Source of the DNA: Reclinomonas americana ATCC 50394
Taxonomy: Eukaryota
Length of the DNA stretch: 49,398 nt
Direction of reading: 5' to 3'
Assembly: GCA_048213135.1 (NCBI GenBank)
Contig: PS015060.1
Span: 57,835 to 107,232, forward strand
Every line of letters starts with the position of its first letter. Within the stretch, counting starts at the first letter, position 1. The notes beneath the pieces are model-generated. The model worked only from the letters and a program-made list of their open reading frames with translations, was not told the origin of the DNA and ran no database searches. This document shows positions 82 through 49,247 of the stretch, one piece after another. The position numbers and the translations under genes were made by a program.

Positions 82-3000
82 GTGTTGGAGACCATTAGCT
101 CGTGCGGCTTCGAGGCCGACGTGGTGGAGGAACGCGGCGATGTCCCGGCGCTGGAATTCGGCGTCACCGGCATGAAATGCGAGAGCTGCGTGGGGAAGAT
201 TGAGCGTGGTGTCGGCGCGCTTCCCGGCGTGTTGTCGGTGCGTGTGGACCTGGCCGGCGGCACTGTCACCGTGTGGGGTTCGGTGGCCGCGGAAGTCGTG
301 TATCAGGCTGTGCGGGAACTGGGCTTTTTGATTCGCGGCGTCGATGAGGAGAAGAGTTGCGCACGCCGTCTATTGTCTTTTTTCACTCGCGCCTTTTGCC
401 TCACGTCTTCCCTGCCGCAGCCACCGAGAGATTTGAGTTGATTGTGCGCGGACTGACGGACGAGAAAAAAGCGGCGAGTGTGGAATGCTCGATTGCATTC
501 ACCGACGGTGTCGATGAGGTGACCGTGGACCGCAACTCGGGGCGAGTGACTGTGCTCGGTCGAGTTGCATTCTCGTCGGTGAGCGCGCTTGTCTCCATGT
601 CTCATTCCTTGTCAACCGTGGCTGACGTAGGAGCGGCAGATTGAGGAGCATTTGAAGGCAGCCGGCGTGGAGATTGTGTCGGGCGCACCGTCTTCATTAT
701 CTTCATCTCCATCATCTGCTGCTGCTGCTGCCCCCGCTGCCTATGGCGCCGTGATGGTTGTATCTGCGATTGAGGGCATGAAGTGCAACGGTTGCGTCGG
801 CAAGGCCACGCGCGCCATCTCGGCCATTCCCGGTGTACAGAGTGTGGTGGTGGACCTGGCGAGCAAGACGGCGACGATCAACACGTCGTCACCGGTCAGC
901 AAGACTGCCGTGGTTGAGGCACTGACCGCCGTCAACCTGCGTGTGGTCGAGCCGAGCGGCAGCGACGGCCAGCCGGCGTCGGCCTTGTCGCCCACGGCAG
1001 CCGCCTCTTCTCCATCGTCAGTGATGGTCGTATCTTCCATCGAGGGCATGAAGTGCAACGGTTGCGTCGGCAAGGCTACGCGCGCCATCTCGGCCATTCC
1101 CGGTGTACAGAGTGTGACGGTAGACCTGGCGAGCAAGACGGCGACCATCAACACGTCGGCACCGGTCAGCAAAACTGCCGTGGTTGAGGCACTGACCGCC
1201 GTCAACCTGCGTGTGGTCGAGCCGAGCGGCAGCGACGGCCAGCCGGCGTCGGCCTTGTCGCCCACGGCAGCCGCCTCTTCTCCATCGTCAGTGATGGTCG
1301 TATCTTCCATTGAAGGCATGAAGTGCAACGGCTGCGTCGGCAAGGCCACGCGCGCCATCTCGGCCATTCCCGGCGTGCAGAGTGTGGTGGTGGACCTGGC
1401 GAGCAAGACGGCGACGATCAACACGTCGGCACCGGTCAGCAAGACTGCCGTGGTTGAGGCACTGACCGCCGTCAACCTGCGTGTGGTCGAGCCGAGCGGC
1501 AGCGACTTGTCGCCGCCCGCGCCATCGCGGCCGCCGGTCCCCGTGGCCACCGACGCTGGCCCGACGTTGCCGCTGGTGATCACCGGCATTGAGGGCATGA
1601 AGTGCCAGAGCTGTGTGGGCAAGATTACTCGCGCCCTCGCGGCTGTGCCAGGTGTCGTTGGTGCGGCAGTGGATTTGCAAGCCAAGACAGCCACCGTGAA
1701 TGGAGCCGCCTCTCTGTCGCTGTTGCATGATGCCATTCGTGCCGCTGGCTTTAAGATTCGCGCTCTCGACGTCATTCCCGGTTGCGTCCCTCCTCCCTTT
1801 GCAGTCCTAATTGCATCTATGAATGTGTCTGTGTTCTCACCCCTCTTTCCCCTTCTCGCAGACATGACCAAGTTCACCCTGTTTGTGCCGTCGCTGACGT
1901 CGCGGCAGGTGGCCACGGAGCTCGAGTGGGCGCTGACATCGTTGGATGGAGTCGACGAGGCTGTTGTCGACATTGACACGTCGCTGGTGACGGTGACGGG
2001 TCGTGTGCTGCTTCCGTGGGTCCACGAGTGCATCCAGCAGCACGGACTGACGGTGGAGACGCGCACACTGACGGTGCCCATTGAGGGCATGCGCTGCGTC
2101 AACGGCTGCGCCAACAAGATTCAGCAGGCACTGGCCAAGTTGGTTGGCGTCGTCGAGGCTGCCGTCGACTTTGAGCACAAGGTGGCATTGGTGCGCGGCG
2201 ACGGTGTCGACTTGGAGACTGTGCGCGACACGATTCGGCGACTCGGATTCAAGGTGGCCGACGTCGATGTGCCTGAAGGTGCGACATTGTGCAATCTTTC
2301 GCCCCTTTGTTTACCTCTTCTCATCAGCCATGGGTGTGTGCTCAGAAATGTCCCGACACGTGGTCGCCGTGGACGGCCTGCGGTGCGAGAAGCGCGACGC
2401 TCTCAAGTTGGAGCGCGAGCTGTCGTACATCCCGGGAGTCACCGACGCCCACGTGAACTTCACCAACAAGACGGCCACGGTGTGCGGCCATGTGACTCGC
2501 GACGATGTTGTGGCGTGTGTCGTGCGCGCGGGATACGTGGCAGCCGATGCCGCGTCGGCGCAGCGTGACATGCGCTTCTCGCTGCGTGGTCTGCTCACCA
2601 GCGACGTGTCGAAGAATCTGCTGTGGGCCATTCAGTGCCTCGACGGCATCACCCTCGTTACGATTGACGACGCCGCGTGTACCGTGCGTGTCGTCGGCAC
2701 GGCGGAAGCGGAAGCCGTGCAGAGGTGCATTCGTGAGCACGGTCTCGACGTGCAAGATGTGCAAGGTGCGTTTTCTGCGATCTCTTTGTCTCTCTCTCTC
2801 TCTCGCGCGCTCCTACCTCCGAAACCTCACCACCACTTGCGCAGTGACGACTGCGAAGCCGGCCAATGTGACTCCCGGCTCACCGGGCGCATCGCTGTCT
2901 CCATCGTCGTCCTCATCGTCACCGCCGCGAAGCAATGCTCGGCAGTACGTAATCCCAATTGTCGGCATGCGGTGCGAGCAGTCGTGTGCACGGCTGCTGG

Positions 3001-6000
3001 CACGTGCGCTGTCGGCGTTGAAGGGCGTCAGCCATGCGTCTGTCGACTTTACCACGAAGCAAGCCACGGTGATTGCCACGTGTACGGAGGACGACTTGCA
3101 TCGCGTGATTGCACAGCAAGGATTCGGAGTCGGCGAAGACACTTCAGTGGCCAGCACGGCGCCGACCACCAAGCGTTTCGTCCCCACCCTTCACCATTCG
3201 CACCCACCACAGATTGTGCTCATCCTTTGTCGTGACGGCTGCAGGTCGTGACCGAGAGCTGACACTGGAGCTTGAAGGACTGCGGCCGACCTCTGTGCCG
3301 CTGGTGGAGAAGCGGTTGCGAGACATTCCCGGAGTGTTGAGCGTGCGCGTCGTTGCGTACTGCTTGTTGGCCCTTGTCTACTCGGTGCCTGCAGGTTGCC
3401 TGACTTGACTTGCACAGGATCCGTTGCGGCGATATGTGGTTGTGCGGAGTGCGGCCGACGGAGAGTTGCTGGATGTACGACTGCTCTCCGATGTGATTGT
3501 GGCGTCCCAGCGTGGAGTGCGCGTGCGCGTGGCCATGCAGTCGCTGGCCACCCCCATTTCGACTCTTGGGCTGGCGGCGTCTCCGATTTCGCCAAGTGCG
3601 TACATCTCTCTCTATCTCTCTTTCTTTCTTACTCATTTTCTTCCTTATGTGTTTCTCTCTTTCTTTGTCTGTCTCCCTCTTTCTCTCTGTGTGTATCTCT
3701 CTTTCTTTCGCTGATTCTCATCCCTTTTCCTCATCGTTGCAGCTGGCGAATCCACCGGCAGCAATGTCAGCCTGGCCTCCACCACGCTGGCGTATTCGTC
3801 GACCGACGAAGACGACACTGGCAACGTGTCGCTGCTAAGTGGCAAGCATGTGTCGAAACGGCAATTCCGACGCGACGGGCAGCGCCGGAAGCGCGGAGAG
3901 CTGCAAAAGTACTTGGAGACGCACGAGGGTCCTGCGGTGGCCGTGGAAAACGTTCCAGAGTCAGGCACAGGTCGCTGGGTGTTTGAGGTGATGGGCATGA
4001 CGTGTGCGTCGTGCGTCGGCAACATCACCAGTGCCGTGCGCGAGATTCCCGGTGTCTCCTCGGTGGACGTCAATCTCATCACGCAAAAGGCGACCATTCA
4101 AGGCGAGACCATGATGCTGTCCACGAAGCGGCTGGACGAAGCCATTCGTGAGCTCGGCTATCATCCGCGGGTGATTATGGAGCCGTCAGACAGGGTATGC
4201 GCCTTGCTTTTTTTTGTGACTCCCTTTGTATTTCCACTCTTCCTTCTCATTCTGTGATATAGAAACCCTCGGACGACTCGTATCTGTTCCAGGTCGAGGG
4301 CATGACGTGCTCGTCGTGTGTGAGTGCCGTCGAGCACGCATTGTACTCGGTTGCCGGCGTGTCACGTGCCTCGGTCAACTTTGCCACCAGTCGAGCCAAG
4401 GTGGACCTGCGTTCGCCGGGGGCCACCGATGTCAAGTCGTTGATTGCAGTTGCGTTTGTGTTTTTGAGTATGTTTTGCTTTTTTCTCTGTCGTCGTGCTC
4501 ACCGCACGCATCGCAGGCGATTCAAGGCGCTGGGTTTTCCGCCAAGCAAATCGTGCGCACCAAGGCCATGGCGAGTGGCACGGAAGCGCGGTCCACATTA
4601 CTCCGTGAAGACGAGACACGCAAGTGGTGGCGACTGTTCAAGCTATCGTTGATATTCACTGTGCCGCTGCTGATTGTGTCGATGGTGTTGATGGAGTGGC
4701 ATCTCATGATGACAATGGTGCGCATGACATGCTTTTGCCCTGTCTCGTAGCATTTCTGCTCGTCTCTCAACTCCTATGTGTGTGTGTGTGCGCGCGCAGA
4801 TCATTGGAGGACTGACAGTGTCGCACTTGCTGCAACTGCTATTGTCATCGCCGGTGCATTTCTACTGCGGCCTGAGTTTCCACATTGGCGCCTACAAAGC
4901 ACTGCGACGCGGCAAAGCCAACATGGATGTGTTGGTGTCGCTGGGCACGAATGCAGCGTACCTCTACTCGCTCTTTGCTGTCGGCTACATGATGCTCTAT
5001 CCGGGTCAACAAGGTAATTGCTTTGTTTGTCGTCTGCGTCTTGCCTTGTCTAATTTTCCTGCTCACTCATACACATGAACACAGAGGGCGTGTTCTTTGA
5101 GACGTCGGCCGTGCTAATCATGTTCCTCACCCTCGGCAAGTTCCTGGAGAGCTTCGCCAAGGGCCGCACGTCGTCAGCGCTGCTGAAGCTGATGGAGCTG
5201 AATGCCGACACGGCTGTGGTTGTCGAGCTCGACGAGCACGGGCAGGTGACGTCGGAGAGGCAGGTGGATGCTGACGATGTCCTGCCGGGCGACATGGTCA
5301 AGGTGGTGCCGGGCGACAAGGTGCCGGTGGATGGCGTCGTGATTAGCGGCCTGTCGTCGGTCAACGAGTCCATGATCACGGGCGAGAGTGCACCGGTGGC
5401 CAAGGGTCCCGGCGACAAGGTGGTCGGTGGCACCGTGAACGGCGAGGGCGTCATGTTTGTGCGCTGCAGCAAGGTCGGCGCCGACTCGACACTCGGCCAG
5501 ATCGTGCGTCTCATCGAGGACGCCCAGACGTCGCAGGCGCCTGTGCAGCGTCTGGCCGACACCATTTCGTCGTGGTTTGTGCCGGTGAGTGACTTGAGTG
5601 CGCGAATGAGATTGCTCCGATGGTGATGAAAGCTGACAAGGTGGATGTATGGCAATACAGGTGGTGGCTGCTGTGGCGGTGGTGACATTTTTGGTGTGGT
5701 TTGTGCTCGGTGTGATGGATGCGTACCCGGCGCGATGGCGCGAGGAAGGTTTGTGCATGTGTGTATGAATTCTGGTGACGGTGGCGTGTGCGCAGCAATA
5801 CTCACTCGTCGTTTGCATGCAGGCATGAACTCGTTCCTGTTTGCTCTGCTGTGCGCCATTTCGGTGCTGGTCGTGGCCTGCCCGTGTGCACTTGGTCTCG
5901 CCACGCCGACGGCGGTGATGGTGGGCACTGGAGTCGGCGCCGAAATGGGCATTCTCATCAAGGGCGGCGAGGCGCTGGAGACCTTCCACCAGACCACCGC

Positions 6001-7869
6001 CATCATCTTTGACAAGACCGGAACATTAACACTCGGCAAGTTCCAAGTGCGCGAGGTCAAGACCTTTGTGCCCGACCGCGTCAACATGCGAGAAGTGCTG
6101 TCGCTGGCCTCGTCGGCGGAGAGCACCAGTGAGGTGAGTGTGCGAAGGGAGAAGGAGGGCGGGGGGGAGGAGGAGGGCATGTTTCTCATTTTTTATTGTT
6201 GGTGACATGCAGCATCCGATTGCCAAGGCGATTGTGGAGCACGCGCAGACTCTGTCGGTGCCCGTGTACACTCCGGGCGAATTCCGCGCGGTGCCTGGTC
6301 GCGGCATCTCCGCCATGTTGACGGAGCGGGCGCACATTGTGCAGCACTTGTGGGAGGCCGGCGTGGACAAGGTTCGGGAAAAGGGGGAAGGGGGAGGGGA
6401 AGGGGAAGGGGGTGGGGGGAGGGGAGGGGAGGGGAGGGGGAAGGGGGAGGGAAAGGGAAGGGAGGGGAGGGGAAGGGGGTGCAGGGCAGGGTCACTCCTC
6501 TCGTCTTTCTCTCTCTCTCCCTCTCTCTCCCTCTCTCTCTCTCTCTCTGTCTCTCTTTACTCTCGGTGGTGTTGCTGGCGGTGGTGTTGCTGGCGGTGGT
6601 GTTGCTGAGCAGCCGGTAACACCACCCAAGAAGAGCACGACTACCACTACTCGCTGAGACCGATGACACACAGCCGCATGTTGTCGACAGAGTGAAATGA
6701 GCGCAGCACAGAGAGAGAACGAGATGAGAACGACGCCGGACTTCGCGCTATGGTCCTGCACGTGTGTGTTTGTTGGCGGCTGTCGTCTGAGGCACCGCTC
6801 TCTGCCTCTTTCTCCCTCTTGCTCACTCCGTCTTTCCCTCCTCTCTCCCTCTCTCCCTCTCTACCTCTTTCATTCTATACTTCTTTCTCCCTTTCCCTCT
6901 TTCCCTCTCTACCTCTTTCCTTGTTTCCTTCTTCCTCTCTCTCCCTCTTTCCCTCTTCCCCTCCCTCCTCTCTTCCCTCTCTCTCTCCCTCCCTCTTTCA
7001 CTCCCTCCCTCCCTTCCGCCATCTCTCACTCTCCTTGCTGATTTACTCACCCCTGTATTCCCCCCTGCAGCGCACCCTGGTGGGCAGCCTTGCCTTTTTG
7101 GCCGACAACAACATTCCGATCAGCGGTCAGATGCGTGCGTTCATCGAGGAGGCGGAGCGTCGCGGCATGACTGTCGTTGCGTGCTGCTCACCATTCGTCA
7201 GTCTGTTCTCCGTCCATTCCCACTCACTCTCTGTCCCTCATTTAGGTGGCCGTCACTCTTGGCGACGCGCTGGTGGGCGCCATTTGCTTGGCCGACACGC
7301 CTCGCCCGGAGGCCCGTGGCACCATTGCCGCGCTGCGTGCCTCTGGCGTGCAGTGCTACATGGTCACTGGTGACCAGCCGTACGCCGCACAAATGGTGGC
7401 CGAGCACGTGGGCATTCCGCCGGCCAATGTGTTCGCCTCACGCCTGCCCGGCGACAAGACGGAGCGCGTGCAGGCGCTGCAGATGGAGGGCCACAAGGTC
7501 GCCGTCATTGGCGACGGCGTCAACGATGCACCGGCTCTGGTGCAGGCCGACGTGGGCGTGGCGGTCGGCTGCGGCACCGATGTGGCACTGGAGAGCGCCA
7601 AGGTGGTGCTGGTGAAGAACGATTTGCGCGACGTGCTCACCGCGCTCGATCTGGCGCGCACCACTTTCCGTCGCATCAAGCTCAACTACATTTGGGCTCT
7701 CGGCTACAACGTGCTGGCCATCCCGCTGGCCACCGGCATGTTCTTCCCGCTGATGGAGGTGCGCATGCCGCCGATTGTGGCCGGCGGTGCCATGATTATG
7801 AGCTCTCTCTCGGTGCTCGTGTCGTCGCTGCTGCTGCGGTGGTACAAGAAGCCGAGTGTCGCGCTCTGA
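82..7869 (+). CDS. ATP7: P1B-1 copper-transporting P-type ATPase (ATP7A/B, CCC2-like), multi-exon, 5' end lies upstream of the window
   Basis: Spliced product contains GMxCxxC HMA domains, [20 protein letters not shown] (about 5378), [10 protein letters not shown] (about 5878), DKTGT (6011), SEHP across intron 6134-6212, TGD, GDGVND, YN and MSSLSV; stop TGA at 7867-7869. The first exon in the window follows an acceptor ending at 81. Confidence 0.95.
751..1506 (+). repeat. 270-bp coding tandem repeat, about 2.8 near-identical copies, each encoding one HMA domain plus linker
   Basis: Units begin at 751, 1021 and 1291 (gtgatggtYgtatct...ggcatgaagtgcaacgg) and differ by only a few bases. Confidence 0.95.
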
Positions 7870-8620: not shown

Positions 8621-11600
8621 ATGTCAGCTGCCGCACCCGCCGCATCATCTGCTGGAGCAGCAGCAGCAGCAGCGCCTGCAAAGGCCACACCCGCAGGTTT
8701 GCAAGACGAAGAGAGAGAGAGAGAGGGAGAGGGAGAGAGACAGAGGAGAAGAAGAAGATAACGTGACGCCTGAAGCAGTCTAGGTGTCATCTTGCGCACA
8801 GCAGTGCGAAGAATGCATGCCAGAGTGAGCAGCTGAGGAGGGAGAAGAAGACAGCGAGGTGAGCGGCTGGAGCAGTATAGGATTACAAACTGCGAAAGAC
8901 TGCGATCAACGAGTGTGATCATGCAGAGGAGAGAGAGAAGGGAGCAGCTGAGGGCGATAAGTGATGAACACATGCTCAGTGATCTTGCGCAAGGAGAGAT
9001 ATGGAAGCTCAACGACGCTCTCTGCACACTATCCAAGTCTGTGGCGTCCCAGCTGTTACAAGGACTCTTCATCTTCTCCTACCGTTCTGTCACAATCGCC
9101 GTTTGCATGTGCTCTTCACATTGACGCGTCGCTTCGTCGTCTTCCGCTTTCCTTTCTCGACTCTTCTTCTTCTCCTACCGTTCTGTCACAATCGCCGTTT
9201 GCATGTGCTCTTCACATTGACGCGTCGCTTCGTCGTCTTCCGCTTTCCTTTCTCTCTCTCTCTCATTGTTGCTTGATCACACTCGTTGAGCAAGGAAGCC
9301 ACCTGAGTCGTCCTTGACTGCTTCATGCACATCTTTGTCCTCGTCCTCTTCTTTTCCTTATCCATTCTCCCTTCTCACTGAGCTTCTTCCATCACGGCAG
9401 CCACGGAGGGAGCTTCATCGTCGGCCGCTGCACCGCCGGCTGCCGATGACGAGGTGGCTGGATTGGCGGATCGTGTGGCGGCGACCAAGCTGGATGCTGA
9501 GGAGCAGACAGAGGTGCCGCGTGCACTCTTCAATCGGGAGCAGTACATTCAGCGAGTGGATTTGCTGCAGCACAACCCCGAGAGCCCACTGTTCTCGGCG
9601 AAAGCTTTTGATGATCCCGCGCTGCGCATGTTTCGTGGTCGCCACTGTCGCTGTTGGTCGTGGTTGTGGTCGTGGTGGTCATCTCTCACGCGTTGTTCTC
9701 GAGCAGCAAGCCGGAGATTCTGCGTGGTATCTTTGAGGTGAAGCAGTACAGACTGCCGTCGAAGATTCAGGAGGCCACACTGCCGCTGGTGCTCTGCGAT
9801 GCACCGTGCGTAGACTTGCCTCATCATCATGATGGTGTCATCTCGCGCTGAAATCCATCTTTTCCATTTCCATGTGGTATACAGTCGAGTGGGTCTCATT
9901 GGACAGGCGCCAACGGGAACGGGCAAGAGCTTGTGTTTCATCACGGCTATGCTGCAGCGATGTGATCCGACCAAGGAGGTGCCGCAGGCGCTGTGCTTGT
10001 GCCCCACACGCGAACTGGCACGCATGCACGCAGTGGAGGTGCAGGAGGTCGGCAGATTCACCGGCCTCAAGGTGCGACAGGCGACACCGGGTGGCGACAG
10101 TTGAGTGCTGGGGATGGGAAATGACGGCAACGATGATGATGATGATGAGACGTGCTGACTGTGTGGGTGACGACGGTCTGCAGCGAGCCAGGTGACGCAG
10201 CAGATTGTGGTCGGCACGCCCGGCACGATTCTCAATCTCGTGCAAGAGCGCAAGTTGAATCTGCGCAATCTGCAAGTGTGGGTGATTGACGAGGCCGATC
10301 ACATGATGGAGCAATTCCGCGAGGATACCGATAATCTCAAGAAGTGAGTGGGAGGAGAAGGGGAGAGATGAGGGAGAAGGAGAGGGGTGTATGTGCTGTC
10401 CTCTCGCAATGTCTTCACAAATCTTTTTCTCTCCATTCTGATCTGACACTTGCTCCCTTTCCTCGCAACCCCCTGCAGGAAGATTCCACCGGGCACCCAA
10501 GTGCTTCTCTTCTCGGCCACATTTGCGGAGAACCCGGATCTGCAAAAGTTTGCCGTGTCCCTGGTCGGCAAGGACGCCAACATTGTGAAGGTGCAGGAGT
10601 CGGAGTCTGCCACGTCGAGCACAGTGGTGCACTTTGAGCTGGATTGCGGCAGCCCGGCCAATCGGCTTCAGGCGTTCAGCAAGCTGTACCCGAAGTTGCC
10701 GGCGGGCAAGACCATTGTGTTTGTCAACGTTGCGTCTTTGATTTGGAAATGGAGGGTGCATTGTGCAACAGGCAAAACTCACCACCACGGTACAACACAG
10801 ACACGAAAGGGAGCCGAGGAAGTTGGCCTTGCGATTCACGACACGTGCGGGCTCACCACGGCGGTGTTGACAGGAGGTGTGTGTGTGTGGTGAAGGGAGG
10901 GAGGGAGGGAGAGAGCGTGGAGAAGGAAGGAAGGGAAAGGGAATACTGTGAAGATGGAAGAACAATCAGGAAGAAAGCACAATGAGTGAGTGAGAGAGCG
11001 TCTGAGAGAGAGAGGAAGGAGGAGGACAATTGGATAAGCGAGAGAGAGATATTGTGACACTGTTCGCCTTCGTGATCCGCGAATCTCACTCGCATTTTCT
11101 CTGGCGACACACAGCTCGTGACCCCAGCCAACGTGACGTGGTGGTGGATCAGTTCCGCTCCGGCACGCACTCAGTACTCGTAGCCACCGATGTTTTGGCT
11201 CGTGGTTTTGATGAGCTGGAGGTGAGAATGGAAGTACAAGGGGCATGCCAGTGTGTGCTTGTTACGTATTCACTGGATGTGTCACCAGACGACGGCGGTA
11301 ATTAACTGGGACGTACCATCGGCACAACACAACGGCAAGGACATGGCGCAAGTGGTGTACCAGCATCGCGCTGGTCGCTGCGGACGCTTTGGCAATCGGG
11401 GAGCTTGTGTCACGTTCATTGTCGATCGGTTGTCGCGTGAGACATGGACTCGTTGCGTTGGGGGGAGAAGGGAGAGATTGGGAGAGAAGAAGGGAGCGTG
11501 CTATCTCGTATCGTTTCTGCGCGCGTGTCTCTCTGCCAACCTGTTTCTCCTTCGTCCTCTTGTTTCTCCTCCCAAAGCGTGTTCTTCTTTTCACCTCGAT

Positions 11601-12120
11601 GTCTGGCTCGCTCTCTTTCCCTCTCCGTGTTTGTGTGCGTGTGTGTGTGTGTGTGTGTGTCATTACTGGACTCATCTACTCTCTTGTGTCGCACTGGACG
11701 CATGTAACTCTCAAATCCTTTGAAGGCTGTTTTTCTTGCCATTGTGTCGATTTCTGTCGATTCGTTTCCGAGTCCTCTGTGCTCTCTTTCACTATTCGCA
11801 TGTTGCACATGGAGTGTTTCACCCTCGGTCATCGGGAGTCGTGTTCACCCAGCATGTTCTTCAACCTCTCAGTGCGTGCGTGCTGTTGTCTATCCTCTCA
11901 TTCTCTGTTCTCTGTCGCACACGGCGTGTGTCACTCTCTCCGTGTGTTCTCCAACCTCGCCAGTCACTTTGCATGTCTATTCTTCACAATCTTCCCCTCA
12001 CCTTCTCCCTCCCCTTCTCCATCCACAGGCATCAAGCGCTTCCAGGAGGCGGTCTACACGCTGGACCCGCAAGACTGGGACAAGAATGAGGAGCTGGTGA
12101 ATTCCAAGCTGCAGGAATAG
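8621..12120 (+). CDS. DBP5: DEAD-box mRNA export helicase DBP5/DDX19, about 10 exons
   Basis: NPESPLFSAKAF..LRIKPEILRGIF (DDX19-like N-terminus), PSKIQE, GQAPTGTGKS, PTRELA, GTPG, DEAD, SAT, TDVLARGFD, HRAGRCGRFG; ATG 8621, TAG 12118-12120. Confidence 0.9.
9065..9252 (+). repeat. About 95-bp direct duplication in DBP5 intron 1
   Basis: ctcttc..ctcctaccgttctgtcacaatcgccgtttgcatgtgctcttcacattgacgcgtcgcttcgtcgtcttccgctttccttt occurs twice in tandem. Confidence 0.9.
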
Positions 12121-37600: not shown

Positions 37601-40009
37601 GCTCTCACAGGCGAGTGATACACGACAAGAGAATCAGTGTGCACAAAGAGAGAGAGAGAAGGGACAAGAGAAGGAGAGAGAGTTGGAGAACATGTTGCAC
37701 GCTATTCACCAGCCGGAATGCGACGTCTGCGCGACAGGGCACGGTTCACTCTCTCTCTCTCTCTCCCGTAGACAATATAACAGACGAGTGAAGGCAGAGA
37801 GAAAGAGGATGTCCCGAGGAAGAGAGAGACGGCGAGAGAATAAGCAAGTGAGAGAAAGAGAGAGAATGCGTTTCATGCTAACCGCCTGACGGAATGCAAT
37901 GCTTGCATCACCAGGCACGTTCTCTCTCTCTCTCCCTACCTCCCTCCCTCCCTCTTCCCGCGCATCACCCTCACCCGCACAGAAACACAGCCGTGACCCG
38001 ACTCGTGTCCTCGTCGGAATAGTCGCTGCACGAGAAGCTCGAGTCGGAATGGTCGCCGCCGTTGCGATCAACGCCGAGTCGTTTCTGTGACAAAGAGACA
38101 GAGCGTGAGAAGATTTAAAAAAGACATGCACACACAATTCAAGTTGATGTACGCAACCCTCTGCTTGTGCCACGACCGCAGGAACGCCAACATCTCGTCC
38201 ACCGCCGCATGATTCCACCACAGCTGATTCGGCTGCCGCGGAGCCAACACGTCGTTCCACAAGCTCGTGGGTGCCGCCTGCAACTCAGTGCGGTACCTCA
38301 CAGCTGCAGACGCGATGAGTTACAGCAGCACGAGCAGCATGCGCTCTGAACTCACCGAGCTCGTTCACGTTGTCCACTGACGCGACGCCGTCATCCGCTA
38401 CGATCGGCATCGCACGACGTGGTGGCAGCAGTCGCATCGGCGCTGGAGTTGTTGATGTTGTCGTCGTGGTCGTCGTTGCAGTGGTGGAAGAGTCGTCGAA
38501 ATCCTCGTGCGCTGCAAATGGCTGCTCACGAGAGGCACACAGACAGTGAGAGAAGAAGAGAGGGAGGGAGAGCGAGAAAAGGAGAGGGAGGGAGAGAGAG
38601 ATGCGGAGAGAGTGAAAGAGAGACGGAAGCAGAGTGAGAGATAAGCTGAGTGAGAAACAGACACAGAGAAGAACAGTAGAGAGAAAGAGAGGAAGCTGAG
38701 AGAGAAGCAGAGAGAAGAGGCAGTAGAGAGAGAGCGAGAAGACAAGATGGTGAGCGAAAAAGGAGAGACAGGCAGAGAAAAGCAGCGTGAGAAGCGAGAG
38801 AGAAGCAGAGAGGGAGAGAGAGAGAAGGGAAGCAAGAGAGAAGCAGAGAGAAAGAGAGAGAGGGAGGGAGACGCAGAGGCGAGAGACGAAGAGAGGAAAG
38901 CAGAGAGGAATGCAGAGAGGCAGAGAGTTAAGCACAGAGAGAAAACAGATCCAGAGAGAAGTGGAGAGAAACAGAGAGAACAAGAGAGGCAAAGAGAAGC
39001 AGAGAGGGACAGAAAGAAAAGCAAAGAGAGAGAGAGAGAGGCACAGAGGGAGAAGCAGAGAGAGAAGAAAATAGAGAGACAAGCAGAGCGGCAAGCACAG
39101 AGAGAAGGAGAGACAAGCAGAGAGAAAAACAGAGAGAAGAATGAGAAGAGACGCACAGAGAGAAGGAGAGAGAGAACCAAGAGGAAGAGAGGAAAAGTGA
39201 AGCACAGAGAGAGAGAGAAAGACAAGCAAACAGAGAGAACCAGAGAGAGTGATGAGAGAGGCAGAGCGAGACAGACAGACAAGAAGGGCGACAAGCACAG
39301 AGGTAAGCAGAGAAAAAGCACAGAGAGAAGGAGAGAACCAAGAGGAAGAGAGGAAGAGAGAAAGAGAGAAGCACAGAGAGAGAGAGACAGAGAGAAGCAG
39401 AGAGAGAAGACCAGAGACAACACGTGATCTGCATTCAATCTGCATCCTCCACTCCTCCCACACACTCACCATCCACCCCACATGACACGGCGGCAACGCC
39501 TCCTCCGGCTCCCTCCCATCCACCACCACCTCCGCCACCTCGGCCACATACTGCACAAACGCGCCAGGCAACAAGAACGGATGACTCTCGCGTCCCTCAC
39601 TCATCGCCGCCACCGCCTCTGCATTGCGTCGCTGGTCCTCCAACTCACGCAACTCGGCCTCCTCTGCGGCCACTCGTCGCCGCTCCTCTGCAGAGAGGAA
39701 GAACAGGGAAGTCGCAGAGGAGGAGGCCTTGTTGCGAGTGCGTTTCGTGGGAGGCTCGTTGGTGGGTGGATCGGGGAGCTCTTCCACCTCATCTGCGCAA
39801 TCCTCCTCTTGCTCTTGCTGCTGCTGTTGTTGTTGCGCGAGGGCGGTCAGAGTGCGTTTGCGTGTGGACCGACGCAGTTTCATAATGTCAAAGGCGGAGG
39901 GAGGTGCAGGTGGAGGAGGTGGAGGAGGTGGAGCAGGTGCGTCTCCTCCGCGTGCAAGAGAGGTCAGTTCGTTGAAACCTTCTGCGAGGTCGGGGTCGAA
40001 GAAGGCCAT
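34683..40009 (-). CDS. ATAD5: ATAD5/Elg1 PCNA unloader (alternative RFC large subunit)
   Basis: LWNDVLAPRQ..EMLAFLRSW, spliced Walker A FLCG|PPSSGKS (intron 37974-37302), ELDAGS, EATQSHSV, LFLIENVD..DDRAFL..ATKRPVVLT and C-terminal SKRTRRPVTYL follow the ATAD5 layout. Confidence 0.85.
38545..39420. repeat. GA-rich low-complexity tract filling an ATAD5 intron (CT-rich on the sense strand)
   Basis: Degenerate (GCAGAGAGAA)-like repeats. A similar tract lies at 35535-36225. Confidence 0.85.
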
Positions 40010-40389: not shown

Positions 40390-40422
40390 ATGAGCAGGTG
40401 GAACCCATCGAATCCCTCTGTC

Positions 40423-40458
<36 letters not shown>

Positions 40459-40692
40459 TGTGTGAGTGAGTGCAAGAGAAAGACACTCTCATTGACACGT
40501 GTCTCACACTCTCTCACTCACTCTCTCTCTCTCTTGCAGCTCTTGAACCGTGAGCTGGCGCAGTTGCAGAAGGAGCCCAGGTGAGTCATGCAAAGAGAGA
40601 GAAAAGAGATGTTGCGTCATTGATGTGTGTGTGATTGAACTGACACGTGTTTGTGTGTGCAGTGAGCTGTTCGTTGCTGGGCCGCTGGAGGT

Positions 40693-40741
<49 letters not shown>

Positions 40742-41024
40742 AGAGAGAGAAGGAAGGAGGAGGAGAGAGGAGGAAGGAAGGAGAGAGACGTAGAGTAGAC
40801 GACGTACGAGTAGTTGTGTACGTTTAGTTAGTCGGTCCCGTTCGTTCGTTCCTCTACCACACACACACACACACACNNNNNNNNNNNNNNNNNNNNNNNN
40901 NNNNNNNNNNNNNNNNNNNNNNNNNNGACGGAGGGAGGAGGAGAAGACGACGACACACGAGAGAGAGAGAGAGAGAGAGAGACACACACCTCCTCTCTCT
41001 CTCTCTCTCTCTCTCTTCTTCTCA

Positions 41025-41058
<34 letters not shown>

Positions 41059-41460
41059 AGCACAGGAAGGGAGAGAGAAGCACGCACAGAGTGAGGAAAC
41101 ACAGACTCTCTCTCCCTCCCTCTCCCTCTCTATCTCTCTCCGCGCACGCACACACACACACAAAGACTCTCTCTCCCTATCTCCCTCTCCCTCTCCCTCT
41201 CTCTCTCCCCCCTCTCCCTCCCTCTCTCCACACACACACGCGCACAATGACCCACCCCCGCCTTCACTCCTCAAGCTGTCCCTTTTCCCACTCACTTTTT
41301 TCTCTTTCCAGGAGGACTTGTTTGAGTGGCACTTTACGCTGCATGGACCGGAGGGAAGTGACTTTGAGGGCGGTGTGTATCACGGGAGGTTGACGTTGCC
41401 GACGGATTGGCCGTATCATCCGCCGGATATCTACTTCTTGACGGTGAGGTGGAAAGGGGA

Positions 41461-41548
<88 letters not shown>

Positions 41549-41769
41549 GTACGTACGACGACGACGACGACGACGACGTACGTACGAGTACGAGAGGACG
41601 GAGGACGGTACGACGGACGACGTACGGTACGTACGNNNNNNNNNNNNNNNNNNNNNNNNNNNNNNNNNNNNNNNNNNNNNNNNNNNNNNNNNNNNNNNNN
41701 NNNNNNNNNNGCGCGTCGTCGACGCGTACGTACGTACGTACGTACGTACGTACGTACGTACGTACGTAC

Positions 41770-41828
<59 letters not shown>

Positions 41829-43426
41829 AGGCGTGAAGGACCGAGAAGACTAAGAAGTCAGTCCATGCAGACACGCGCGTGTAAATGACAGATGGAGGGC
41901 GAGACGAGCAGCGGTCAACTTCCTTGCAGACACGCGCGTGTAAATGAGGAGGGGCGGGGAAGAGTCTGGGCTGAAGAGCGGTGTGTTGCAAGGGAGGGCA
42001 GGAGACCAGCTTGCCTTCTGAGAGCGAGAAGACGTTTGCTCATTCACAGTGAGAGGGACCACTCTTTTCATTTTCGTCTCACCCTCTTCCCGCACAGCCA
42101 AACGGCCGCTTCGAGCTCAACCAGAAGATCTGCCTGAGCATCACGTCGTATCACCCCGAGTCGTACCAGATTGTCACCATTGTTGCGTTTTCCCTCCTTC
42201 GCCGATCTCCGCTGCCTCTGCTTACCCCCCTTTCCCTTCCTGCAGCGACAAGTGCTGGAGGCGCTGTACGTGCACTTCCTCGAGGAGGGGCAGGGTGCGA
42301 TTGGCGCGCTCAATGCGCCGCCGGAGCGGCGACGCGAGCTGGCGCTGCAGAGCTGGGACTGGACGTGCGACAAGTGTCAGTGCTGCAATGCGGAGCTGCT
42401 GCCACCGCGGCCGCCAAAGGAGGAGGGGGCGGGAGCGCGAGCGGGAGATGGAGCAGTTGCGGGAGGGGGGATTGGGGGGTTAGGGGGGAAGGGATTTCTT
42501 TTGCAGAACGTGTTTTTGCGATATGTCGTCCCTCTCGCTGTGGTTGTCTCACATGTTCTCTTTTGTTTCCCACACCTTTCTCCTTCGTCAGTCGTTCCTT
42601 GCACTATTACGTCGCATTCGATTCTGTTCCCTATACACGCCTCTTTCCCCACACCTTTCTCCTTCGTCAGTCGTTCCTTGCGCTGTGTCGTCGCATTCGG
42701 TTCTGTTCCCTATCCACGCCTCCTTTCTGTTTTTTCGATACACCAGCGGCCTTCCGAGGATTCTCGTATTTCATGGGAAAGCCTTTCTTCTCCAGTGTCA
42801 GTTGCTCTCTCTCTCTCTCGCTCTCGCTCTCTTGTGCAAGCACACGCACACACTCTCAAACACAGCAAACTATCCAATCTGTCTGTTGTCTCCCCCCTTC
42901 CTCCTTCTCCTCTGCCTCCCACAGCCTTTTTCAATGTTCTCGCTCTCTCTGTCTCTAATACCCTTCTCCCCCTCGTTTCCCCTCGCAGCCACGCCCTCCA
43001 TCCGCCCCCACCTCACCACCGCCGGCCGCCCCGGCGCCGACTGCCGCCACCGCGACCCCTCCCGCCGCCGCTCCGCCTCGCAGAGTGCCTCCTCCTCGGT
43101 GCGTCTGTCTTCCTTATGCGCTCCCTTCTTATCCTCTTCTCACATTCCATTCGCGCAGATCCCCCGACGTGGTTGCCGGTGCCGCAGCACCTGCGCCACC
43201 CGCTGCTGCTGCTGCTACCACCACCGCCACCACCGCGGCGGCGAGGGGCGCCTCCGCCACCTCGGCCGCCGATGCCGAGCTGGAGAAGCAGGTCGTGTTG
43301 CCGCCGATGCGCTCGGTGATGCGCACGCTGTTCCCCTCAAAGTTCGACACGCTGATTCTGCTGGTGGCGACGGTGGTGGCGCTGTTGTTCTATCAGAAGG
43401 CGCTGCGTATGCATTGGACGCAGTGA
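40390..43426 (+). CDS. UBE2J1: Tail-anchored ubiquitin-conjugating enzyme UBE2J1/Ubc6-like, 8 exons
   Basis: MSRWNPSNPSVKLL...GPLEEDLFEWHFTLHGPEGSDFEGGVYHGRL...FLTPNGRFELNQKICLSITSYHPE (catalytic Cys), GAIGAL..ERRRELA..WTCDKC, Pro/Ala linker, C-terminal hydrophobic anchor LILLVATVVALLF. Confidence 0.92.
42568..42722 (+). repeat. About 79-bp imperfect direct duplication in a UBE2J1 intron
   Basis: cccacacctttctccttcgtcagtcgttccttgc...gtcgcattcg.ttctgttccctat.cacgcctc occurs twice. Confidence 0.85.
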
Positions 43427-44791
43427 TGAGGGTGGGGGTGAAGAGAGTGAAGAGAAAGAGATGGGTTGTTGTGTGGTTGTAAATTGCTGGAGTACACCAA
43501 CAGCCTAACACGAGAGGCCCGAGTTTAGGGTCTGTGCATTTCCTGCACCGATTACAGATCAACACGAATGCGGACCAGGCTCTGCTCGTAACAGTGAACC
43601 ACCACCAAACAAGCAACAGCTGCCTTGATGACCAAGTCCAACCATTTCCAAACGCAGACACCAGTCTTGAGGTAGCGGCAGGTTTTCTTGTGTCTCTGTT
43701 GCAGAAGTGATTTTAGCACTGTGGCAGCCACTGACCGTTGGCCGCACAGTAAGAGATGAGAAGACTGACGGGTTACTTGGTGACGCTGACTCGGACATGC
43801 CGGCGATATTGAAATTACGGTACGTTTCTTCAGTGCCGCACGGCCCTCATATTCACTCATCGCTCTTCTTTGTACTCCTTACGGCAGTAACTGCTGACAC
43901 TGGCTCTGCTTGCACGCAACCAGCATGTCTTGCACGTTCTTCCCCTCCACCGCCACCACTGTACATAATGACGACGACAACATCAACATTGTGTCTGTGG
44001 TCAACGTCGTCTTCAACCCTGAGTCCTCTTGTTTCTCACTGTGCGGCCACCGGTCAGTGGCTATCACGGTGTTTGAAATCACTGATGCGACAACAATGAC
44101 AACAACAACAACAACAACAACAACTGCGCCCACCACCAGCCACCACCGATATGAGCCTCACCAACAACATGACAAGCTCTTGTGTTTCAACCACTCCACA
44201 CCACCACTGCTTTTGCTTTGCCTGCTTCACGGATCCGGACCCNNNNNNNNNNNNNNNNNNNNACTCTTCTTTTGCTCTTGGGAAAGATGCCCCCGTCTTA
44301 TTGGTGACTGGTCGTTCACTAGTGGAAATTGTCCCAATTTCCAGATAATACTTGATCGTGACTTTTTTGCACAAAACTGCAGGCGTTCCTCTCGCGGCAC
44401 ACAACCACATGCAACACGCCTCCGCTCTCCACTGCACTCCACCGAATACCACACTTTTCAAGAAAAACCAGTTACTCGGAATCTTTTCAGTTTTAATTTT
44501 TGGACAAAACCTTGTCGCCATGGCAATAACCCTTCTTCACCCTCTCTTTACGTATCCCTCCTCTCTCTCTCTCACACACACACACACTCTCCACCCCAAC
44601 CATCTCTCCAAAAAAGGAAGTTGCATAGTCAATGCGTCAACGCAGTACACGTCGACTTGGGACGGTTGTCCAGTCCTCCATTCCACAACTCAGTTTCCAG
44701 TATAATCCTTTCACTTGCTTTGAAGAGCAGAGGCAAAGTGCCCTCTTCCTTCTCATAGTCTCTCTGGTCTTTCCTTTGTTTTCTTTGACCC

Positions 44792-47182
44792 ATGACACCA
44801 AAGAGCACCACAGCCCTTGTGCTGCTCGCCGGCGTGCTTCTCCTCATCGCCATTGTCGCTGAGGCGAACAGCGCCCGCCACCAACACCAACACCGCCGCC
44901 ACCACAACGACGACGACGACTTTGACGACGCTCTCTTCCGTCTCAACCACCGCCGCTGGACCGGCCGCAACCAGCACCACCACCGCAAGTCCTCTGCGTC
45001 CCACGGCAGCCGCAGCCATGGCCGCCGCAGCCGCAGCCACAGCCACAACAGCCACAGCCACAGCCACAGCCACCACTGGCCGCTGACTGCACCAGTGACT
45101 GTGCTGGTCGCCTCCTCGAACGCCACGGGTGGTTCGTCCCAAGTCTTTTGCGCCCAAAATCGGTTAATTTTCCGTTTCTCCTTTTCGACTCACACCTCTT
45201 ATTGCAGCGTCCTCGGTCAAGACGTCGACTTGCGAGGGCTTTTCTGCGACGCTCACCTGCAAGGGTGGCCTGGTGCTGTCTGTCACCAAGGCGGCGTACC
45301 GCCCGGCCAACTTTGGCGAGTGCGGTGTGGCCGATTTGGCCTTCTACACGCCGTATGGCCTCTCGTCGCGCGTCGGCAGTGCGCTGGAGCACCTCACTGG
45401 TCACCACCACCACCACCGCAGCCGCAGCCACAGCCACAGCCACAGCCACAGCCACAGCCATGGTGGCCTGTGGCACTCGCCGCTGGGCTTCAGCTACAAC
45501 CACCACCACGCGGCTGCGCGCCACCACGCGCACGCCCGTCCGCCGGTTGTCCCGAGCACGCTGTGCCCGGCGATTGATGCCACTGCGCGTCTGCAGGGCA
45601 AGTGCAACGGCCAGGCGTCGTGCTTGGAGAGCACCCTGAGCATCACCAAGAACTGCCCGCTGTCGTCGCCGTTTATTCTCGAGATCGAGTACGGCTGCGG
45701 ATTGCCGCAGGGCAATGGCGGCACTACGCCGACGACCCCGACGACTCCGACCACGCCGACGGATCCGCGCAGCAACTGCACCAAGGGCACGCCCAAGTGC
45801 CGTTGCCACTGGACGGCGACTGGACTGCTGTGCCTGCGCAGCAAGAGCAAGTCGCACAGCCACTCGCACAGCCACAGCCACTCGCGCAGCCACCCGCGTG
45901 CGGTGGTGCACACGCGCCTGCACAAGCGCCGCAGCAGCCACAGCCACTCGCACAGCCACCACCAGCGCGTCAAGCCGCTGTTCCGCTCGCCGTACCTGTC
46001 GGGTCTCCCGCGCAGCCACAGCCACAGCCACAACTTGCCCGCGCTGGTGCACAAGCGCGGACACGCTCACGCTCATGGCCACAAGCACGGCCACGCGTAC
46101 GCGCCCGCTCATGCCTTTGCGCATGCGCACAAGCACCGTCATGCCAGCCACGTGCACCCGCAGGTGGCTGCTTGGCCCGCGCCGGCTCATGGCGTGACCC
46201 GCGACTCGGCGTGCCCGACGCTCAGCGCCAGCCTCCAGTGCCCGGCCGGCCGCCACGTGCAGGTCAAGCAGGCTCGTCTGCGCCCGGCTAGCCCGTCGGA
46301 CGGATGCGCTGCGTCTCCCCACGCGCACAGCCACTCGCACAGCCACTCGCACAGCCACAGCCACAGCTTCAGCCATGGCCACGGCCGTCGCCACTTTGCG
46401 CACGCTCACCGCCGCAGCAGCAACAGCCACGGCGCTCGCTGCCGCATCGCCGTCGACATTACCAACCAGCTGAAGCAGCGCTGCAGCGGCCAGCACCAGT
46501 GCTGGGTGCGCTCGGACACCTTCAACAGCACCAAGTGCGCCAAGAAGCAGGTGGTCGAGGTGGACTACTCGTGCTCGCCCGGTGAGTCTTTCCACCACCT
46601 TCTCTGCTTGTATGTTGTCTCGATGCTCACTCTCCCCTTTTTCTTTCAGCTCCCCGCCCGCATGTGCCTGCTCCTCGCCACTACCCGCAGCCTCCTCGCT
46701 ACCCGGCCCCGCACTTCCCGCAGTACCCGCCGCAGCAGCCACACCTGCCCCCGTTCCCGCAGCAGCCGTACTTCCCCAACTTCCCGGCCTTCCCGCAGCA
46801 GCCGTACTTCCCCAACTTCCCCACCTTCCCCCAGCCGCCGTACTTCCCGGCCCCGCCGGCCAACCCCAACCCTGCCCCGCAGCAGCCTGGCGCGCAGTAC
46901 CTGCAGCGCGTGCGTGCTTGCGGTGGCAACGTGGTGACCGCCGCCTGCCGCGATGGTGGCTCGCTGGTGGTGCTGAGCGCCACGGTGCGCGCGGCCAACT
47001 CGACTGACGGCTGCCCTGTGCCGCCGGCCGGCCAGTGCGCGGCGGTGAACGACGTGACGGCGCCGGTGAAGCAGAAGTGCGATCGCAGCACCAACTGCAC
47101 GGCATCGCTCAACGACTACGAGGGCGGCAACTGCTCCACCACCCGCGTGCTGGAGATTAGCTACTGGTGCCCGTCGGTGTAA
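44792..47182 (+). CDS. Secreted His/Ser-rich protein with three SUEL (galactose/rhamnose-binding lectin)-like domains and a Q/P/F/Y repeat; exons 44792-45131, 45208-46581, 46650-47182
   Basis: Signal peptide MTPKSTTALVLLAGVLLLIAIVAEA. Three 8-Cys units such as CEG..LTC..LSVTKAAY..C..C..LQGKCNGQASC..C..LEIEYGC. (SH)n tracts and QQPYFPNFP repeats. Splice phases are consistent. Confidence 0.8.
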
Positions 47183-47565
47183 GCCGCGCGCGCCAACCGC
47201 TCTTGCTGTTTCTTTGTTCTTTCTGTATGCATTTTTTGTTGTTGCCAAGGTTGTTTTGCTGGTGGGAGTATGAGAGCAAGAGGTGGTGATTATTTTTGCG
47301 AGGGCCACTGAGGTCTTTTGTGTGTTGCACTTTTTTGATGATTTGATTTTCCGAGTGTATTATGTTGTTGCGATTACATGGCGAAGGGGGGAAGGGTGAG
47401 GGCGAGGATGATATGCAATAGCCAAGAGAATCAAAACCAAGTGGGCGCACCGGAGGATTCACTTGTCCCTCGGAGGATCATTTTTTCCGTCCTCGCACGA
47501 CAGTGTCGTCATGCTCGTGTACACCCACTACTATTTGTTTTCATCCCGCACGCCAACACCACACC

Positions 47566-48017
47566 ATGGTGAGACATCGCTACTCTTGTTGTTTGCATCA
47601 TGCAGCTCCCACTAACGCACTCTCTCCCTCCAGTCGTACCAGCGCACTGAGCAGTCGAGCAAGGATTCCCCCTCGGGAACCGAGTTCACTCGCACGGAGA
47701 AGGTCGTGCAGCCGGGCGAGCGCTACGAGTCGAGCATCTCGGAGCAGCGCGTGGGCGAGGACACTCGAGGAGTGACGGAGAAGATTTCCGACGCGGCCTC
47801 GAACGTGGCGCACAAGGTGAAGGACTGGGCGTCGTCAGCGTTTGGCAGCGGCACCGACACCACGGGCACCACGGGCACCACGGGCACCACGGGAACCACG
47901 GTTGGTACCACGGGAACCGGCAGCACGCTGCTCGGCCAGGGCGCGGCGGCGACAGGCATCGAGAAAAAGACGACGGAGCAACGCACCACCACCAGCGTGA
48001 ACTACCCGTCGACTTGA
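47566..48017 (+). CDS. Small hydrophilic Thr/Gly-rich protein, LEA/hydrophilin-like; exon 1 codes only the ATG
   Basis: ATG|GTGAGA...CAG (intron 47569-47633) joins in frame to SYQRTEQSSKD...VTEKISDAASNVAHKVKDWASS..(TTG)n; TGA 48015-48017. Confidence 0.7.
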
Positions 48018-48167: not shown

Positions 48168-49247
48168 TTACGGCTTCGGCACCGGTGAAATGTCTTGCGT
48201 GGCGCGCACGGCGCCCTTGGCCACCAAGTAGTTCACCAGCTTGGTAATGTCTTCTTCAGTGCCCGTCAAACGCGAGTAATGGTCGGCCATGGCCTCCTGC
48301 TTGGTGAATGCGAGGGCGTCGTCCGTCGATTGCACCAGCGATGCGTGGTACACGACAACCTGCGTCGGACTCGCCGAGTACAACACGGTCTCTGTGGGGG
48401 AGGCGGGAGAGTGAGAGAGGGAGAGAACAAGGGAAAGAGAGAAAGGGTGTGACGCAAGCGAGAGAGAGAGAGAGAGAAAAGGGAAAGAGAGACGCGAGAT
48501 GGAGGCAGGCGGAGCGAGAGAGAGAGACAAGGGAGACAGAGTGAGTGAAACTGAGAGGCAGAGAAGGAGAAAGAGAGACAGAATGAGCGAGAAGAGAGGA
48601 ACAGCGACAAACAGAGAGAGCAATCGTGAGCAGGGTTGGCAAGAGACGAGCGACGGAGTGAACGAAAAGACACAGACAAACAGACAGATAGAAAGACAGG
48701 CAGGCAGAAAGAGAGAGAGAAGACGAAGAAGAAGAAGAAGAAGAAGAGAGGCAGAGAGAAAGGAACACAGAAGGAGAGAATAGCGGCGAGGAGGGTTGAC
48801 AAGTAAAGAGGGCGCAACTATTGATGATCCTGCGTTGAGCGGGGCGATTAGTGAGCACGTCGACCAGCATGCTGGCGGTCTTGGGCACCGTGTCGGACGT
48901 GACCACAAACGCCGACTTGAATCCCTCAAACTTGTTCTTCTTCGGGTCGGCCTTGGCACGCTTCCAATCCGCCGGCTTCCACCTGAACGACATCAATCAG
49001 AGTCTGCGCATATGAGAGAGAGACAAGACTGCTTTCTGCATAAAAACCAACCATGTCAACCGATCATACGATACGCCTTCGATATCCACTGTGGTCGCCA
49101 CATACGTGAACTTTTCACGTGCGCTCCACTTGAACTTGGGCGACGGGCCATTTGCGCACTTGAGAACGTATGGATTCTCCCATTTCTCCCTCTCCACTGT
49201 CACCTCCAGCTCGCCAGCAGTCAGCGGGAAGCTCTCAAGAGGAGCGA
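48168..49247 (-). CDS. Protein of unknown function, last three exons; 5' part lies beyond the window
   Basis: Phase-consistent exons about 49247-49052, 48982-48819 and 48391-48168 with non-repetitive coding-like sequence, ending in TAA. Confidence 0.7.

Follow-up and report, generated by a model that had tools for sequence, protein, structure and literature searches.

In a 49,398-base stretch of the genome of Reclinomonas americana ATCC 50394 (contig PS015060.1, positions 57,835 to 107,232; hereafter the window), 22 of 102 curated introns (21.6%) begin with the hexamer GTTG(C/A)G. Judged by reading frames, homologous proteins and base statistics, this class of 5' splice sites (donors) is confirmed as real and statistically solid within the window. 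Its sequence reads like the local donor GTG(C/A)GT into which one T has been inserted. As to how such sites are recognised, we lean towards the view that the GUUG(C/A)GU donors, which are genuine and abundant here, are read in a register shifted by one base; this is the most likely of the explanations considered below, with the RNA-RNA contacts being inferred.

Evidence for a donor class with an extra T

A preceding sequence-only reading had listed 21 donors of this kind and had estimated that they make up about a fifth of all introns. GTTGCG or GTTGAG begins exactly at all 14 plus-strand and 7 minus-strand coordinates, and the exon ends in a base other than G at 19 of the 21, as had been noted; the exceptions are 1781 and 38157. 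As intron starts, 20 of these sites are supported. At 33878, where the frame is open through the site, there may be no intron. The DHX37-like gene has two further GTTGCG donors that the list lacks, 21516 and 20396 (-). The estimated share agrees with the 22 of 102 curated introns and with a count of 11/39 in three conserved genes.

Junctions were examined by means of a blind test: between two anchored exons, all GT/GC..AG pairs compatible with the frame were enumerated without using the donor sequence. The spliced peptides were scored against hidden Markov models made from homologs only (36 DDX19-like proteins, 45/66 DHX37, 45/70 Cu-ATPases and 71 HMA segments). GTTG(C/A)G ranked first at seven of the nine junctions tested in this way (4449, 7176, 10100, 10729, 24632, 21516 and 20396), and a MAFFT alignment with 12 homologs was gap-free at 4449 and 7176. 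In the Cu-ATPase gene, 17 introns were curated by hand, five of which start at listed GTTGCG donors; the resulting frame of 1958 residues is open. In the NHL-repeat gene, splicing at 29767, 31179 and 31891 restores the D-x5-[IV]R spacing that is common to 8 NHL-like repeat copies. All 22 extra-T introns start with GT at a frame-defined boundary, which was derived from frame and homology. In 20 of them, the A of a branch-like CTCAC, CTGAC or CTCAT motif lies 16-29 nucleotides ahead of the 3' splice site; the distance is 10 nucleotides at 3352 and 41 at 42456. The individual sites are listed below; ranks refer to the candidates enumerated in the blind test.

356-362 (+): GTTGCGC donor, Cu-ATPase; intron 356-420; 1958-residue frame open; CTCAC 18 nucleotides before CAG; located in a linker between HMA domains
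1781-1787 (+): GTTGCGT donor, Cu-ATPase; intron 1781-1861, CT-rich, placed by frame continuity; CTCAC 23 nucleotides before CAG; frame alone does not demand the intron, since its 81 nucleotides are a multiple of 3 and contain no stop
3352-3358 (+): GTTGCGT donor, Cu-ATPase; intron 3352-3417; retention leads to an in-frame stop at +54; second of 38 with the HMA profile (12.9 vs 13.5 bits, uninformative)
4449-4455 (+): GTTGCGT donor, Cu-ATPase; intron 4449-4516; first of 99 with the HMA profile (+6.6 bits) and first of 135 with the ATPase profile (+5.0 bits)
7176-7182 (+): GTTGCGT donor, Cu-ATPase; intron 7176-7245; first of 22 (+4.6 bits)
10100-10106 (+): GTTGAGT donor, DDX19/Dbp5-like DEAD-box gene; intron 10100-10183; first of 110; retention leads to a stop at +2
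10729-10735 (+): GTTGCGT donor, DEAD-box gene; intron 10729-10800; first of 123; a GC variant 3 nucleotides downstream scores 7.1 bits lower
11452-11458 (+): GTTGCGT donor, DEAD-box gene; intron 11452-12028; second of 512 (47.4 bits; GC inside the motif 48.2; in-phase GTGAGAC 15 nucleotides upstream 39.4)
12768-12774 (-): GTTGCGT donor, Nup54-like gene; intron 12774-12700, assigned by eye; CTCAT 21 nucleotides before CAG; not demanded by the frame, because the 75-nucleotide intron is free of stops
12983-12989 (-): GTTGCGT donor, Nup54-like gene; intron 12989-12930; retention leads to a stop at +6; CTGAC 20 nucleotides before CAG
13807-13813 (-): GTTGAGT donor, Nup54-like gene; intron 13813-13735, CT-rich; retention leads to a stop at +2; the 26-nucleotide exon ahead of the donor contains no other GT
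20390-20396 (-): GTTGCGC donor, DHX37-like gene; intron 20396-20335; first of 173, by a margin of only 0.5 bit
21510-21516 (-): GTTGCGT donor, DHX37-like gene; intron 21516-20569; first of 39 (+5.7 bits); length nominal, because the intron spans the run of N at 20980-21399
24626-24632 (-): GTTGAGT donor, DHX37-like gene; intron 24632-24563; first of 89 by 34.5 bits
27250-27256 (-): GTTGCGC donor, N-terminal part of the DHX37-like gene; intron 27256-27180, placed by frame and signals in a region that is not conserved
29767-29773 (+): GTTGAGT donor, NHL-repeat gene; intron 29767-29845; spliced peptide YVAD/SVNNTVRQL; CTGAC 21 nucleotides before CAG
31179-31185 (+): GTTGCGT donor, NHL-repeat gene; intron 31179-31252; spliced peptide YISD/GNNHAVRV
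31891-31897 (+): GTTGAGT donor, NHL-repeat gene; intron 31891-31952; spliced peptide YVSD/AGNATIRQI; retention leads to a stop at +6; acceptor AAG, while a TAG 14 nucleotides upstream would break the frame
33878-33884 (+): GTTGCGT, listed as donor; frame open at 33833-34116 without an intron; alternatives are a 21-nucleotide or a 65-nucleotide intron; excluded from the counts
38151-38157 (-): GTTGCGT donor, unnamed gene; intron 38157-38085, placed by frame and signals; CTCAC 22 nucleotides before CAG
42182-42188 (+): GTTGCGT donor, UBE2J-like gene; intron 42182-42245, 80% C+T; CTTAC 22 nucleotides before CAG; the sole other in-phase GT is GTCACCA
42456-42462 (+): GTTGCGG donor, UBE2J-like gene; placed by frame and signals; acceptor uncertain, downstream exons tiny and uncertain
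48812-48818 (-): GTTGCGC donor, unnamed gene; intron 48818-48392, 84% C+T; CTCAC 21 nucleotides before CAG

The related forms named in the sequence-only reading were found as written: GTTTCGT at 3175 and 9630, GTATGCG at 4195, and GTTTGCGT at 22162 (previously given as about 22163). GTTGTGT at 29447, which is preceded by a C, may follow the same design on the GTGTGT variant.

3175-3181 (+): GTTTCGT donor; intron 3175-3244, placed by frame continuity
9630-9636 (+): GTTTCGT donor; intron 9630-9706; second of 149 (40.3 vs 41.7 bits for a GC candidate)
22155-22162 (-): GTTTGCGT donor with two extra T, DHX37-like gene; intron 22162-22102; first of 118 (+7.5 bits)

The intron set of the window was assembled from 125 gene-finder predictions, of which 28 were dropped, and 5 introns added by hand, giving 102. 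Those dropped were six introns bridging two genes, those with flanking exons of few bases or across gaps, the false calls at 564 and 14024, and the listed site 33878. An intron between 29520 and 29766 was dropped after attempts to place it in frame had failed. A gene finder blind to the donor from position +3 onward fragmented the genes and misplaced donors; it was abandoned as a test. A position-weight gene finder misplaced the donors 29767 and 31891.

Of the 102 donors, 22 are GTTG(C/A)G; T stands at +3 in a further 21 and G in 55, while 4 belong to none of these groups. If the positions were independent, 1.04 GTTG(C/A)G donors would be expected (p=9e-23), and the hexamer is thus far commoner among the donors of the window than independent bases predict. 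It accounts for 77 of 5928 GT sites on both strands (1.3%) versus 21.6% of the donors. The probability that a common hexamer coincides by chance with intron starts, or that assembly errors have added a T, is negligible, and both were rejected on these numbers: the hexamer does occur 77 times and 21 of its 43 genic sense-strand copies are not donors, but neither the excess over expectation nor the enrichment among donors fits chance, and assembly errors would not track the -1 base or +5. Within the ten gene spans, the sense strand has 23 GTTG(C/A)GT heptamers, 17 of which are donors, and 61 GTG(C/A)GT hexamers, 22 of which are. An extra base other than T is never used there (GTAG(C/A)G 0/6, GTCG(C/A)G 0/31, GTGG(C/A)G 0/55). 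At 791-797 and 1061-1067 (+), GTTGCGT is part of coding sequence, namely the HMA motif (..CNGCVGK..) of tandem HMA repeats that are nearly identical, and is evidently not spliced.

Window-wide, T at +3 is general, a feature that had escaped the sequence-only reading: it is found in 43/102 curated donors, half of which are in the normal register, and A in only 3. A group of GTT(T/C/G)G donors, on which the sequence-only reading was silent, is in the normal register; it contributes 21 of the 102, with G at +5 in 18/21 and at -1 in 16/21.

5749 and 45132 (+), 25387, 24989 and 14221 (-): examples of the GTT(T/C/G)G(T) group

Proposed recognition in a shifted register

The bases at +4 to +7 of the extra-T class (G; C 17, A 5; G; T 17, C 4, G 1; n=22) mirror those at +3 to +6 of the canonical class (G; C 22, A 23, T 10; G in 49/55; T 32, C 12, A 7, G 4; n=55), and G at +5 is found in 0/22 shifted donors versus 70/80 others. 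The earlier description of the sites as extra-T copies of the local consensus, devoid of +5G, thus holds. G at +4 occurs in 26/43 donors with T at +3 versus 0/55 with G at +3 (p=1e-12). The last exon base is G in 2/22 shifted donors versus 60/80 others (p=2e-8); this is also below the phase-matched coding background (2 observed vs 7.9 expected, P=0.0045), while A at -1 is above it (8 vs 3.4). This resembles position -2 of canonical donors, with A in excess (34 vs 10.6 expected) and G depleted (6 vs 15.9). C is found at +5 of the class in 17/22 donors versus 22/55 at canonical +4 (p=0.005). With the exclusive use of T as the extra base included, four sequence statistics are in line with the shifted register that had been suggested, and the earlier interpretation is supported in part; the choice among a shift, a bulged U and a variant small nuclear RNA (snRNA) or factor is one that we infer.

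Under a shifted register, the cut would be made at the first GU of GUUG(C/A)GU. The recognised block would be UGCGU or UGAGU plus the preceding G, which corresponds to G/GUG(C/A)GU slid one base downstream. The intron's +1G would occupy the slot of the exon's last G, +2U would be a tolerated mismatch, and +3U to +7U would pair as canonical +2 to +6. Position +3 would be restricted to U because it sits in the canonical +2 slot, and the former exon-end preference would move one base upstream. The catalytic stage would fix cleavage at the upstream GU, which would demand slack of one base from the cut to the U6 contact.

The NHL repeats contain five phase-0 introns directly after the same D codon, whose donors are as follows:

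29035 (+): GTGAGT
29767 (+): GTTGAGT
31179 (+): GTTGCGT
31891 (+): GTTGAGT
32188 (+): GTGCGA

Since these paralogues share the intron site and differ in their donors, the exon boundary is fixed while the T comes and goes inside the intron. This suggests that canonical and extra-T donors interconvert through a change of one nucleotide within the intron.

For duplex folding, two U1 5' ends were assumed, namely the standard one (Tan et al. 2016) and ACGUAC, which has a G opposite +4; neither is from this organism. With the ACGUAC end, +1G was placed on position 9, as in a shift, for 13/22 donors, and on position 8, as in a bulge, for 2/22. From this folding and the C preference at +5, we predict a U1 5' end in this organism that has a G opposite canonical +4.

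In a bulged register, the exon end, +1G and +2U would pair normally, the U at +2 or +3 would bulge, and +4 to +7 would pair as +3 to +6. This arrangement gives one base pair more than the shift, and the slid consensus fits both equally well. Moreover, a U bulge beside a U is degenerate and could account for some of the T preference, and Tan et al. 2016 (PMC4856993) describe human sites with a +2/+3 bulge. Nonetheless, the AG at the exon end should be kept or strengthened where a bulged site is weak, whereas -1G is depleted as stated above. In addition, a plain bulge should tolerate bases other than U, but A, C or G as the extra base is used in 0/92 occurrences, and +1G was folded on position 8 in only 3/22 or 2/22 donors, whichever U1 end was assumed. 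No preference for AG before the cut is seen in the class, and the exon-side and +1/+2 pairing in normal register that a bulge implies is not apparent. We therefore regard bulging as improbable and favour the shift over a simple bulge, because +5G is absent, -1G is lost and T is the only extra base.

Alternatively, a dedicated component might read the class in a normal register of its own, be it a protein of the U1C/LUC7 type or another U1 (or U6) paralogue in whose recognition sequence a base has been added or changed. The donors do form discrete classes and no continuum, and a standard U1 end would pair very weakly with the class, yet 17/23 sense-strand heptamers are used. Co-evolved U1 ends exist as well, with ACAAAC in Entamoeba and the candidate ACGUAC in Mastigamoeba, as given by Roy and Bowser (10.1101/2022.06.08.495308). 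On the other hand, if +1G paired with C8 of a U1 variant, a preference for G at -1 should persist, which is not observed, and a search of the whole window with Rfam at gathering thresholds gave 0 matches, and thus no snRNA gene. On balance, a dedicated component seems unlikely.

An annotation artefact is a considerably more doubtful explanation. The real cut would then lie elsewhere, e.g. at a GC-AG intron 3 nucleotides downstream (GTT/GCGT), or the introns would be kept. The GC variant is indeed within about 2 bits at 11452 (0.8) and 20396 (2.3), retention keeps the frame at 1781 and 12774, and at 33878 there is possibly no intron at all. However, 5/22 sites are GTTGAG and contain no GC, and at 4449, 7176, 10729 and 21516 the GC variant falls short by 4.6 to 7.1 bits. 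An artefact would also require that exons of all three phases (13, 6 and 3 sites) end in GTT, and a branch-like motif is present 16-29 nucleotides before YAG at nearly all sites. GC-AG offset introns were consequently rejected, the two near-equal scores being counted as ties. U12-type introns have a donor of the /RTATCCTT kind; they were rejected, too, as 0/102 curated donors have it.

Several points weigh against recognition in a shifted register or limit the weight of the numbers given for the class. The data are one window of an assembly which is a draft, as its five runs of N attest. The count of 102 introns is not independent of the hypothesis, because the donor model of the gene finder held the class and edits by hand followed. 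The blind test is not infallible, because it misranked ordinary junctions in variable loops at 4718, 6372 and 9806. For eleven sites (356, 1781, 3352, 12774, 12989, 13813, 27256, 38157, 42182, 42456 and 48818), the support consists of an open frame and intron signals only. The copying of the canonical -2 slot by position -1 of the class is only partial, because C is not depleted at -1 (8/22, as frequent as A; 6.8 expected), whereas it is depleted at canonical -2 (7 vs 16.9); the comparison of A at these two positions gave p=0.07. Finally, folding with the standard U1 end yielded a class mean of -2.1 kcal/mol and no consistent register, versus -7.1 for canonical donors.

Genes and introns of the window

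The window has a G+C content of about 56% and is densely packed with intron-rich eukaryotic genes, ten of which were recognised:

82-7869 (+): Cu-ATPase with many HMA domains
about 9401-12120 (+): DDX19/Dbp5-like DEAD-box helicase
12268 to beyond 14266 (-): Nup54-like FG nucleoporin
about 17476-18401 (-): Tctex-1 protein
20143-27804 (-): DHX37/Dhr1-like helicase
about 28377-34597 (+): large NHL-repeat/PAN protein
about 34775-39604 (-): unnamed gene
40390-43426 (+): UBE2J-like E2
44792-48017 (+): His-rich lectin-like protein
48168-49398 (-): unnamed gene

The median intron length is about 70 nucleotides and most introns are C+T-rich; their 3' ends have a CTCAC/CTGAC-like motif about 20 nucleotides ahead of CAG or TAG. 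In large protein collections, the closest matches showed 53-56% identity for a 203-residue Cu-ATPase exon and at most 76% for a 75-residue DHX37 exon, so that neither the organism nor a close relative is represented there. A word-based homolog search with the DEAD-box exon 10480-10728 gave no match, and a metagenome scan returned 16 loci with a top identity of 60%, no close relative being among them. Pfam, applied to single exons, identified Tctex-1, UQ_con and PAN_4 and gave weak matches to Nup54 and SUEL lectin; none of its coordinates were usable for junctions.

The N-terminus of the Cu-ATPase (82-4448, +) is an unusually long array of HMA and HMA-like domains, and its exon 631-1780 contains three near-identical tandem HMA copies. 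A 699-nucleotide intron of this gene (6372-7070, +) has the donor GTTCGGG, a long GGGGA/GGGAA purine tract at its start and a long CT tract at its end.

For the UBE2J-like gene, a PDB search at 42182 aligned the upstream exon to residues 85-107 of UBE2J2; the downstream exon was without match. The solved UBE2J2 has W-N-P-x-W-S after HPDTW. This stretch is missing from the UBE2J-like protein (42098-42455, +), whose alignment with UBE2J2 ends at HPES-Y. The gene may be divergent or the gene model incomplete.

Opposite the His/Ser-rich lectin-like gene (44792-48017, +), an equally long open frame exists at 44629-47105 (-), and the gene finder called both; the plus-strand reading has the weak SUEL lectin match as its sole support. 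A long AAG/lysine-coding low-complexity tract at 19009-19162 (-) is next to the run of N at 19222-19786, in an AT-rich segment (34% G+C at 18001-20000). The tract is probably not coding, although the gene finder made it part of a gene.

Comparison with known registers and significance

Human 5' splice sites of the /GUUAAGU type, read in a shifted register, are said to have been described by Roca and Krainer in 2009. The class found here resembles them in that it starts with GUU, continues with the species consensus one base downstream, is cut at the upstream GU, has no +5G and mostly lacks -1G. It differs in that it makes up 22/102 introns of one window, against a few dozen sites among some 200,000 in humans, that the shifted consensus is GUG(C/A)GU and not GUAAGU, and that its U1 pairing is presumed. 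In quantity, the class is an extreme case of a register that is known but rare. Registers with a bulge of one nucleotide, reportedly introduced by Roca et al. in 2012, likewise set the downstream pairing block one nucleotide further from the GU; in contrast to these human sites, the exon-side consensus is lost here, U is the sole extra base, and the frequency is orders of magnitude higher. In Tan et al. 2016 (PMC4856993), 68 human sites with bulge +2/+3 and 51 with bulge +3 were predicted, among 10,248 noncanonical predictions.

Atypical donors are also found in other lineages. According to Roy and Bowser (bioRxiv 10.1101/2022.06.08.495308), Entamoeba has the donor GUUUGU, the U1 end ACAAAC and one consensus at 88-98%, Mastigamoeba has the donor GUGCGC and the candidate U1 end ACGUAC, and Thecamonas and Mamiellales combine a +4C consensus with a standard U1. 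The window shares with lineages of the Entamoeba/Mastigamoeba type the frequent U at +3 (43/102) and C at +4 (22/55), and its normal-register GTT(T/C/G)G group recalls the GUUUGU of Entamoeba. Whereas one normal-register consensus dominates nearly all introns in lineages of the Entamoeba type, three classes coexist here (55 with +3G, 21 with +3T in normal register, 22 shifted, of 102), one of them out of register. A literature search on the motifs, supplementary files aside, found none of them named as splice sites; the supplements to Tan et al. and to Roy and Bowser may contain relevant site lists or donor logos. A search by topic found no report of an abundant out-of-register donor class in any organism, supplementary files again being outside its scope.

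The sequence-only reading had called this mode of splicing mainstream, which the data bear out for the 49-kb window alone. A further extension, slightly less likely than not, is that the organism possesses a two-register spliceosome, in which about one fifth of the introns genome-wide would be recognised one base off, either by a standard U1 for which shifted pairing has become normal or by a second U1/U6 paralogue with a compensating change. If so, the catalytic core would routinely accommodate an additional nucleotide separating the cut from the U6 contact. So far, U1 registers that are shifted or bulged have been rare human exceptions, each proven by minigene; a register serving a fifth of the introns would provide hundreds or thousands of natural examples. 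These would reveal the real requirements of the exon end, of +2U and of the U6 hand-off, and would test the uncoupling of cleavage-site choice from the U1 register as a rule and not as an accident. Annotation would be affected as well: a gene finder whose score covers six intronic positions in a single register would put about one fifth of the donors of this genome in the wrong place. The organism would thus offer a natural test of how the cut point is located by the splicing machinery.

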